Positions 48,419-49,202 of a stretch of DNA of 64,000 nt are shown in pieces. The position numbers and the translations under genes are program-made. The stretch is from the sequence record PZ179880.1; one strand, written 5' to 3'. The DNA comes from a phage. The first letter of the stretch is position 1. Each line of letters starts with the position of its first letter. Under the pieces are notes generated by a model that was not told the origin of the DNA, made no database searches, and saw only the letters and a list, made by a program, of their open reading frames with translations.

Positions 48419-48426
48419 TAGTTCAT

Positions 48427-48624
48427 CTAAGAATATGTAGAAGGATATTTGGCAAAGTTAGGCTTATATCCTAATTTAACCATTTGTTTTGCTTTGCGAG
48501 TAAATCCTAAAGAACGCTCACCTTTAAGATATTGTTTTGGTGTCATAGGCCCTTGATGCATCTGCCGACAAATAAAAAGGGCCATAGCATTAGGAACATC
48601 CTTAACTTTTAATTTATTGCTCAT
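48427..48624 (-). CDS. Small basic protein inserted between frd and td
   Basis: 65-aa Lys/Arg-rich ORF; ATG overlaps the frd stop (ATGA); its stop is followed by a 2-codon mini-ORF ending in the td start. Confidence 0.6.
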
Positions 48625-49202
48625 TTATACACTGATTCCGTAAGGGTTGTTACTTCATCTATTTTATACCAATGGGTTTCAACCATTTCACGCTTGCTTA
48701 TATCATCAAGAAAACTTGCATCTAATTGAACCGTTGAATTAACACGATGTCTTTTAACGATGCGAGAAACAACTACTTCATCTGCATAAGGTAATGCAGC
48801 ATATAACAGAGCGGGTCCGCCAATTACACTTACATTAGAATTCTGATCAAGCATAGCCTCGAATGGTGCATTAGGGCTTGACACTTGAATTGAACCGCCA
48901 GAAATGTAAGTTATGTACTGCTCCCATGTAATATAGAAATGTGCTAAATCACCATCTTTAGTTTCAGGATAATCACGCTCGAGGTCACACACTACAATAT
49001 GTCTACGACCTGGAAGTAATGTAGGCAATGACTGGAACGTTTTAGCACCCATAATCATAGTTGTACCTTCAGTACGAGCTTTAAAATTCTGGAGATCCTT
49101 TTTAACTCGTCCCCATGGTAAACCATCACCTAAACCGAATGCTAATTCATTAAAGCCTTCGACAGTTTTAGTTGGAGAATAAGCGAATACCAATTTAATC
49201 AT
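48621..49202 (-). CDS. frd: Dihydrofolate reductase
   Basis: 193-aa ORF, T4 Frd length; DHFR-like sequence. Confidence 0.93.

Follow-up and report, generated by a model that had tools for sequence, protein, structure and literature searches.

A truncated allele of the small phrog_9550 gene, with an apparent two-codon mini-ORF, in the variable frd-td slot of a T4-like phage

In phage T4 the stop codon of the dihydrofolate reductase (DHFR) gene frd and the start codon of the thymidylate synthase gene td reportedly overlap, an arrangement that Purohit and Mathews are said to have described in 1984. The junctions of the trp operon are an example of termination-reinitiation coupling, and two-codon minigenes (AUG-AUA-stop) are known from lambda bar, where they are conserved, transcribed and associated with a known phenotype, peptidyl-tRNA drop-off. 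In native E. coli gene pairs efficient reinitiation is found only at overlaps or at gaps of a few nucleotides (nt), and a gap of +14 nt already costs 40-80% of it; overlap-coupled pairs are in addition enriched for subunits of heteromeric complexes (PMC10666635). In this work we analyzed the frd-td interval in a 64,000-nt stretch of phage DNA (sequence record PZ179880.1; the whole stretch is called the window below), in which an earlier note had described a small basic open reading frame (ORF) and, between it and td, a two-codon mini-ORF. Our overall reading, which we hold with high confidence, is that the small ORF is a known accessory gene in a polymorphic slot and a link in an overlap-coupled gene chain, and that an amber codon at Trp66 has left the apparent mini-ORF.

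The genes frd, small ORF and td all lie on the minus strand of the window. frd (48621..49202, 193 aa) matches Pfam DHFR_1 (E 1e-19) and phrog_316 (E 3e-57) and shares 93-97% nt identity with T4 frd; td (47558..48418, 286 aa, intronless) matches Pfam Thymidylat_synt (E 1.6e-95). The 3' end of frd reads GTG TAT AAA TGA, and its TGA stop shares ATGA with the start codon of the small ORF, the ATG within AAATGA (48624). The small ORF (48427..48624) has 65 codons and ends with TAG at 48429-48427; directly after it comes ATG-AAC-TAA (48418..48426), the last A of which is the A of the td ATG (48418). The 65-aa basic ORF of the earlier note, its overlap with the frd stop and the order of TAG, ATG-AAC-TAA and td ATG (48429-48418) agree with the sequence. 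Its statement on T4 is also borne out, since in NC_000866, checked here, frd and td are joined by a direct ATGA overlap. Relative to T4, the extra DNA at the frd/td overlap amounts to exactly 206 bp, and this segment is bounded by two copies of an AATGA direct repeat, a left one at 48621..48625 (minus strand) and a right one at 48415..48419 (minus strand) that spans the td start codon. The junction sequence is TATAAATGAAACAATACC in T4 and TATAAATGA[GCAAT...GAACTAATGA]AACAATACC in the window.

The small ORF is a genuine gene and was already on record as an accessory gene of T4-like phages. Its residues 1-65 align to positions 1-65 of the 68-position phrog_9550 profile (E 2.4e-42), and tblastn found homologues in 238 phage records, 134 of which show at least 95% identity (Tequatrovirus and Dhakavirus). 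Weaker homologues are carried by Klebsiella phages such as Marfa (~80%), Enterobacter phage CIP9 (73%) and Serratia phage 4S (60%), and the most remote ones, at ~43% identity, by the unrelated phAPEC8-like myoviruses. Most records, from more than 100 T4-like genomes, label the product a hypothetical protein (so do the GenBank copies in YUEEL01, fPS-90, ACG-C40 and pSs-1); other names in the family are the UniRef entry "Uncharacterized protein, Tevenvirinae" (for example A0A449C5N9), Marfa gp177, 4S MYO4S_00122 and phAPEC8_0028. Some copies bear the labels "DUF4858" (phage Shinka) or "flagellar biosynthesis protein" (PYPS2T), which we rejected as no library match supports either. The family is narrow: clustering at 90% identity gives 41 clusters for it in 5.8 billion proteins. 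An exhaustive hidden Markov model (HMM) search of 1.84 billion representatives returned 15 clusters at 50% identity, all of small proteins except for one weak repetitive match, and no bridge to a known family. Each member is a complete protein of 66-77 aa that has its own start and a conserved N-terminus. Pairwise dN/dS (nonsynonymous over synonymous divergence) between T4-like lineages is 0.08-0.28, similar to frd, which indicates that the protein itself is under purifying selection. The gene lies directly upstream of td in YUEEL01, ECp13, JS98, Marfa, CIP9 and 4S, that is, in Dhakavirus, Marfavirus, Kanagawavirus and Serratia phage 4S among others, and in at least five T4-like lineages overall.

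The window copy departs from this family at a single codon. In the six relatives compared (YUEEL01, ECp13, JS98, Marfa, 4S and CIP9) codon 66 is TGG. The first five read ...TAT TCT/TCC TGG ATG AAC/GAC TAATG at the end of a gene of 68-70 codons, and the window reads TCT TAG ATG AAC TAATG, with 99.3% identity to YUEEL01 across the junction. The Trp is retained in CIP9, where the gene and td overlap as ATGA/GTGA, and in phAPEC8 (...YNWFD), and W66 is nearly invariant in the family alignment. The changed base is 48428, T on the plus strand of the window and C in the relatives; such a G->A change in gene sense would have turned the Trp66 codon into the amber TAG (48427..48429), and the product would lose Trp-Met-Asn. 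The ancestral 68-codon gene would thus extend over 48418..48624 on the minus strand, as it does in YUEEL01, ECp13, JS98 and Marfa, which read through, and its native TAA overlaps the td ATG as TAATG. Judged by these alignments, the mini-ORF is Met67-Asn68-stop of the 68-aa gene, exposed by a single TGG->TAG change. The window copy shares with the phrog_9550 family the profile match, the frd-td position and, with many Tequatrovirus copies, 100% identity over residues 1-65. It differs in lacking the last three residues (Trp-Met-Asn) and with them the conserved tail Ser/x-Trp-Met/Phe-Asp/Asn, although codons 67-68 remain in the DNA. It is therefore a truncated allele of phrog_9550 and not a non-member.

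The TAG allele appears to be private to PZ179880.1. With an 81-bp junction query, all full-coverage matches listed were 98.8% identical (one mismatch) and none reached 100%. The exact 65-aa product is absent from ~15 billion proteins, and the otherwise identical 68-aa protein occurs on 332 contigs. A degenerate TAG pattern had no match in IMG/VR or in 241 million metagenome records, and the TGG pattern had five in IMG/VR. Nor was the mini-ORF conserved as a reading frame of its own in phage records, IMG/VR or metagenomes. We concluded that the mini-ORF arose neither by chance nor by design; a nonsense mutation left it as a by-product, and it is not a feature in itself.

Other copies of the gene are altered as well. 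In IMGVR_UViG_2938479101_000007 (893-1097) the frame ends after 33 codons (MSNKLKV...MTPKKIS), apparently by a frameshift, a decayed copy that fits the gene being dispensable; in P0035 the C-terminus is changed. These copies bear on whether the TAG is instead a base-call or assembly error, or the consensus of a mixed population, in which case the phage would encode the intact 68-aa protein with TAATG. An error would account for a single-base difference from every full-coverage relative among the matches listed, for an allele found nowhere else in the collections searched and for the loss of a nearly invariant Trp. However, the gene is dispensable, being absent from T4 and most Tequatrovirus genomes, the frameshifted contig copy and the C-terminally altered P0035 make a true nonsense allele quite plausible, and G->A transitions are common real mutations. 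An error is thus somewhat unlikely, but it has to be kept in mind.

The frd-td interval proved to be a polymorphic slot with four states, on which our literature searches returned nothing specific. Marfa, CIP9 and 4S, from other genera, have the order frd - phrog_1928 - phrog_9550 - td. Most Tequatrovirus genomes (RB68, RB51, ime09, Sf23, Bas35 and others; ~363 records at 90% identity or more) have frd - phrog_1928 - td with an insert of 416 bp. The order frd - phrog_9550 - td, that of the window, is found in ~135 records, so that phrog_1928 is about three times commoner in the slot than phrog_9550. The empty state, a direct frd/td overlap, was seen in T4 and its derivatives and in a small number of further phages (RB55, RB59, vB_EcoM_112 and HY03) and made up ~7% of an evenly spaced sample; the T4 junction is thus a minority state and the rarest of the three found in Tequatrovirus.

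phrog_1928 is the RB32ORF229c-type gene (115-126 aa), which has no assigned function and is unrelated to phrog_9550. The two occupy the same slot, both lie between short direct repeats that take in the td start, and they co-occur in Marfa, CIP9 and 4S with phrog_1928 upstream. They differ in that phrog_1928 in Tequatrovirus uses spacers of its own and its own Shine-Dalgarno (SD) sequence instead of overlap coupling; reading by eye, we noted a middle-promoter-like GCTTCA...TATAAT and an AAGG SD before td in this insert. In CIP9 (1826-2504) frd is followed by two tandem phrog_1928 paralogues and then by the small ORF; each paralogue overlaps the gene after it. On either side of the 416-bp, 115-aa cassette of RB68 (1578-1997), found also in Bas35, stands the 9-nt sequence TAAATGAAA, a direct repeat that T4 has in one copy only. 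Coding does not constrain five of its nine positions, so a chance match is unlikely (estimated at ~0.1-0.4%), and the repeat resembles a target duplication or else a rare substrate for precise deletion.

The small ORF appears to have come into the window as part of a laterally exchanged patch. Sliding identity and base-level alignment delimit this patch to 48350..48624 (minus strand), which takes in the small ORF and ~50-70 nt at the start of td. Its identity to Dhakavirus JS98 is 97-98%, in contrast to 70-82% for frd and the rest of td, and the synonymous divergence (dS) between the window and JS98 is 0.05 in the ORF vs 1.14 in frd and 2.83 in td. On the left the patch begins exactly at the frd stop and its ATGA overlap; its right-hand limit is approximate. 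Against T4 the same stretch shows only ~86% identity vs 93-97% elsewhere, which marks it as foreign to the T4-type background. The near identity of the Tequatrovirus and Dhakavirus copies indicates a recent lateral exchange, and a Dhakavirus-like donor is the most likely source of the patch in Tequatrovirus. In ECp13 the small gene is followed by a td whose 5' end is T4-type, which shows that the breakpoint on the right differs from genome to genome. A harvest of IMG/VR gave 10 loci only, too few for a population analysis. Another small mosaic patch lies at the td 3' end (47596-47737), where the window is 87-89% identical to T4 and only 57-63% to YUEEL01, which matches at 96-100% on both sides.

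These comparisons bear on the origin that the earlier note proposed, a de novo insertion of ~200 bp at a T4-type frd/td overlap with coupling afterwards restored by an evolved two-codon mini-ORF bridging to td. The extra DNA is real: T4 has the direct overlap, the window has 206 additional bp bounded by AATGA repeats, and their arrival by lateral transfer is probable from the 97-98% identity to JS98. The junctions of 0 and -1 nt on the two sides of the mini-ORF would also allow relay reinitiation. But the gene occupies the same position in at least five T4-like lineages, with a divergence that roughly tracks the lineages. It has therefore long resided in this slot, as seen in Dhakavirus, Marfavirus, Kanagawavirus and 4S, and the empty T4 junction is the minority state. 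The earlier note would have taken the same ORF at this position in T4 and its relatives as a sign of conservation rather than insertion; the relatives have it and T4 does not. Nor did coupling ever need rebuilding, since in most relatives the TAA of the 68-70-aa gene itself overlaps the td ATG (in CIP9 the overlap is ATGA/GTGA), and the mini-ORF exists in PZ179880.1 only, with TGG at codon 66 in the relatives compared. We therefore regard de novo insertion with rebuilt coupling as highly improbable. Both insertion and deletion seem to have occurred at the slot.

The arrangement of the genes suggests how they may be expressed. The 81-aa ORF upstream of frd (49202..49447, minus strand), whose TAA overlaps the frd ATG as TAATG, is the first member of an overlap chain ORF81-frd-ORF68-td, in which the frd/ORF junction is ATGA and the ORF/td junction normally TAATG. 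In the window the amber codon has widened the last junction to a gap of +8 nt, compared with TAATG or ATGA in the relatives. We calculated the free energy (dG) of anti-SD pairing upstream of each start, for which neighbours with a clear SD gave -6 to -7.3 kcal/mol and random 22-mers a mean of -1.8. The 81-aa ORF has its own SD, AGGAG (-7.3 kcal/mol). The small ORF has a weak one 11 nt upstream (-3.5 kcal/mol), in a context identical to that of T4 td. The mini-ORF ATG has no SD complementarity upstream (+1.7 kcal/mol), and neither has td in the window (+0.4 kcal/mol). In the relatives td scores -3.1 kcal/mol in JS98, which has the intact allele, and -5.5 in both Marfa and 4S; in these two, TGGATGGA within the codons for Trp-Met-Asp also serves as a weak SD for td. 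mRNA folding around the two starts was no better than in shuffled sequences (z -0.36 and +0.55), so coupling via the unfolding of a structure is not indicated. In a promoter and terminator scan of the insert, promoter-like sites were fewer than in shuffled sequence and no terminator was found. Rfam gave a sub-threshold beta_tmRNA match at 48554-48723 (minus strand), spanning the frd end and the small ORF start, with 17.5 bits against a gathering score of 84 (E 0.009 in a small search); we rejected it as chance.

Ribosomes finishing frd would be expected to restart at the ATG inside ATGA, in the context that T4 uses for td, and those finishing the intact small gene would restart at td via the TAATG overlap. 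As td has no SD in the window, its translation would have to come from ribosomes that terminate 8 nt upstream and restart either directly or via an accidental relay, in which TAG is followed by ATG at 0 nt and TAA overlaps ATG by 1 nt. The +8-nt gap should lower td translation unless ribosomes relay through ATG-AAC-TAA. Such a relay is mechanistically possible, as a by-product of the mutation and not as an evolved solution.

The intact protein is small and basic (7.9 kDa, pI 10.3, 13 Lys/Arg vs 2 Asp/Glu). AlphaFold2, run on a 30-sequence alignment, predicted three short helices (13-22, 29-39 and 43-50) and an extended aromatic tail at a mean confidence (pLDDT) of 77. The 68-aa protein had no match in Pfam (E up to 10, 30 family members), NCBIfam or PADLOC, a library of defence-system components (E<=1), and the 115-aa alternative slot protein (phrog_1928) likewise had none in Pfam, NCBIfam or PADLOC. 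A profile search of Protein Data Bank (PDB) sequences gave no match at E<=10, and there was no clear fold match to solved structures. The loss of the invariant Trp66 probably impairs the window protein, the function of which would be reduced or lost. Charge and gene position would suit a dispensable protein that binds nucleic acid, as the earlier note also proposed, or an acidic partner, for example Td or the complex that synthesizes deoxynucleoside triphosphates (dNTPs); we offer this tentatively and think it rather unlikely to be right as it stands.

The same searches tell against the suggestion in the earlier note that the ORF is the remnant of a mobile element, of which the DNA-binding tail of a degraded seg/mob-type homing endonuclease at the frd-td junction would be one form. 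T-even genomes are rich in free-standing homing endonuclease genes that stand between conserved ones, T4 having mobE, I-TevI and segG in the region; the alternative slot occupant is labelled "putative homing endonuclease" in one record, and the segment does move laterally. Yet Pfam showed no nuclease or homing-endonuclease signature in the 30 family members, GIY-YIG, HNH and NUMOD-type domains included, and PDB offered neither a sequence match nor a clear fold match. A LAGLIDADG motif or a DNA-binding module of the kind associated with nucleases was not found either. All members are moreover full-length proteins with their own start, not fragments, and purifying selection acts across the whole protein. 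We find a mobile remnant scarcely credible.

Gene order suggests a more specific role: the protein could regulate thymidylate synthase or the dNTP-synthesizing complex, or be a dedicated partner of either, with overlap coupling keeping its output in fixed proportion to that of Td. Wherever a T4-like lineage carries the gene, td follows it immediately and the two overlap by 1 or 4 nt; subunits of heteromeric complexes are, as cited above, enriched among overlap-coupled pairs; and between genera the protein is better conserved than frd (81% vs 47% aa identity between the window and Marfa). On the other side, short overlaps are pervasive in compact phage genomes whatever the function, and td is fully functional without the gene in T4 and most Tequatrovirus genomes. 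The phAPEC8-type homologue, which has a strong SD of its own, lies among ~70 small hypothetical genes; its neighbours all belong to PHROGs with no assigned function, with no td, frd or phrog_1928 nearby. Its place away from td and its own SD argue against a strictly td-specific role, and we consider a dedicated partner quite doubtful.

A broader view joins such a partner to the history of the slot. The ATGA and TAATG overlaps may double as microhomologies for the precise gain, loss or swap of whole genes between T4-like genera, as in frd-(phrog_1928)-(phrog_9550)-td; each rearrangement would then keep the coupling intact automatically, and the T4 frd/td overlap would be the empty state of a cassette slot. 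If this were true together with the partner role, the 68-aa protein would be a stoichiometric partner of thymidylate synthase that stayed invisible to T4 genetics because T4 lacks the gene. We judge the two together unlikely.

Several points weigh against our reading of a known accessory gene, coupled by overlaps and truncated at Trp66, or against its extensions. An error of sequencing or assembly, rather than a real allele, may lie behind the amber codon. We infer translation of the ORF and its coupling to td from the DNA sequence alone. The TAAATGAAA repeat on both sides of phrog_1928 would fit a cassette inserted at an empty, T4-type junction better than a chance deletion substrate, and an empty ancestral slot in Tequatrovirus may still be compatible with the data. 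The phAPEC8-type homologues, apart from td and with strong SDs of their own, weaken a td-specific role. The functional guess is built on charge and gene position, and no fold or sequence match supports DNA binding.

Some features of the surrounding DNA were also recorded. The phage of the window is itself absent from the phage collection, where the best match is 97.2% identical over 20 kb. The group I td intron with I-TevI is present in T4 and YUEEL01 and absent from the window, where the alignment gap opens at ~47870. As YUEEL01 has both the small ORF and the intron and the window only the ORF, the two are independent of each other. Between td and nrdA (46991-47534, minus strand) lie homologues of nrdA.2 (87 aa, DUF5496) and nrdA.1 (108 aa, DUF4326), which share 47 nt (47271-47317), an overlap that T4 has as well. 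Upstream of frd, window positions 49211-49500 are 95-100% identical to YUEEL01 and ~50% to T4, effectively non-homologous to frd.1; the 81-aa ORF is in this region, with a 111-aa ORF further upstream. T4 has 71 nt between frd and frd.1.

The small gene was thus already known as a family of hypothetical proteins, and the observation in the earlier note is confirmed while its interpretation largely is not. For annotation, the locus should be given as a truncated (amber) allele of that family and not as a new gene with a regulatory mini-ORF; it matters little beyond annotation. T4 specialists may note that the classic frd/td overlap is just one of the four states in which this variable slot occurs, and that a patch of ~270 bp appears to have moved very recently between Dhakavirus and Tequatrovirus with its left boundary exactly on the ATGA overlap. 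The four-state slot, the empty T4 allele and the inter-genus exchange are modest findings that fit the known plasticity of T4-like genomes. The phrog_9550 family, which is conserved, narrow and uncharacterized and which T4 and most of its close relatives do without, is a reasonable experimental target, if not an urgent one.

Compared with the systems described before, the mini-ORF of the window has the same form as the lambda bar minigenes, a start codon, one sense codon and a stop. The bar minigenes are conserved and transcribed, whereas the triplet in the window is a nonconserved by-product of mutation without an SD. As in the termination-reinitiation systems that act at ATGA and TAATG (Huber et al., 2019, PMC6728339; 2023, PMC10666635), the chain of four genes, for which coupling is predicted, has overlaps of -4 and -1 nt and weak or absent downstream SDs, but its ORF-td junction is now at +8 nt. 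With the T4 frd/td overlap the window shares the frd 3' end and the ATGA, both of them conserved. The same context that starts td in T4 starts the small ORF in the window, where 206 bp lie between the two genes, and T4 represents the empty allele of the four-state slot.

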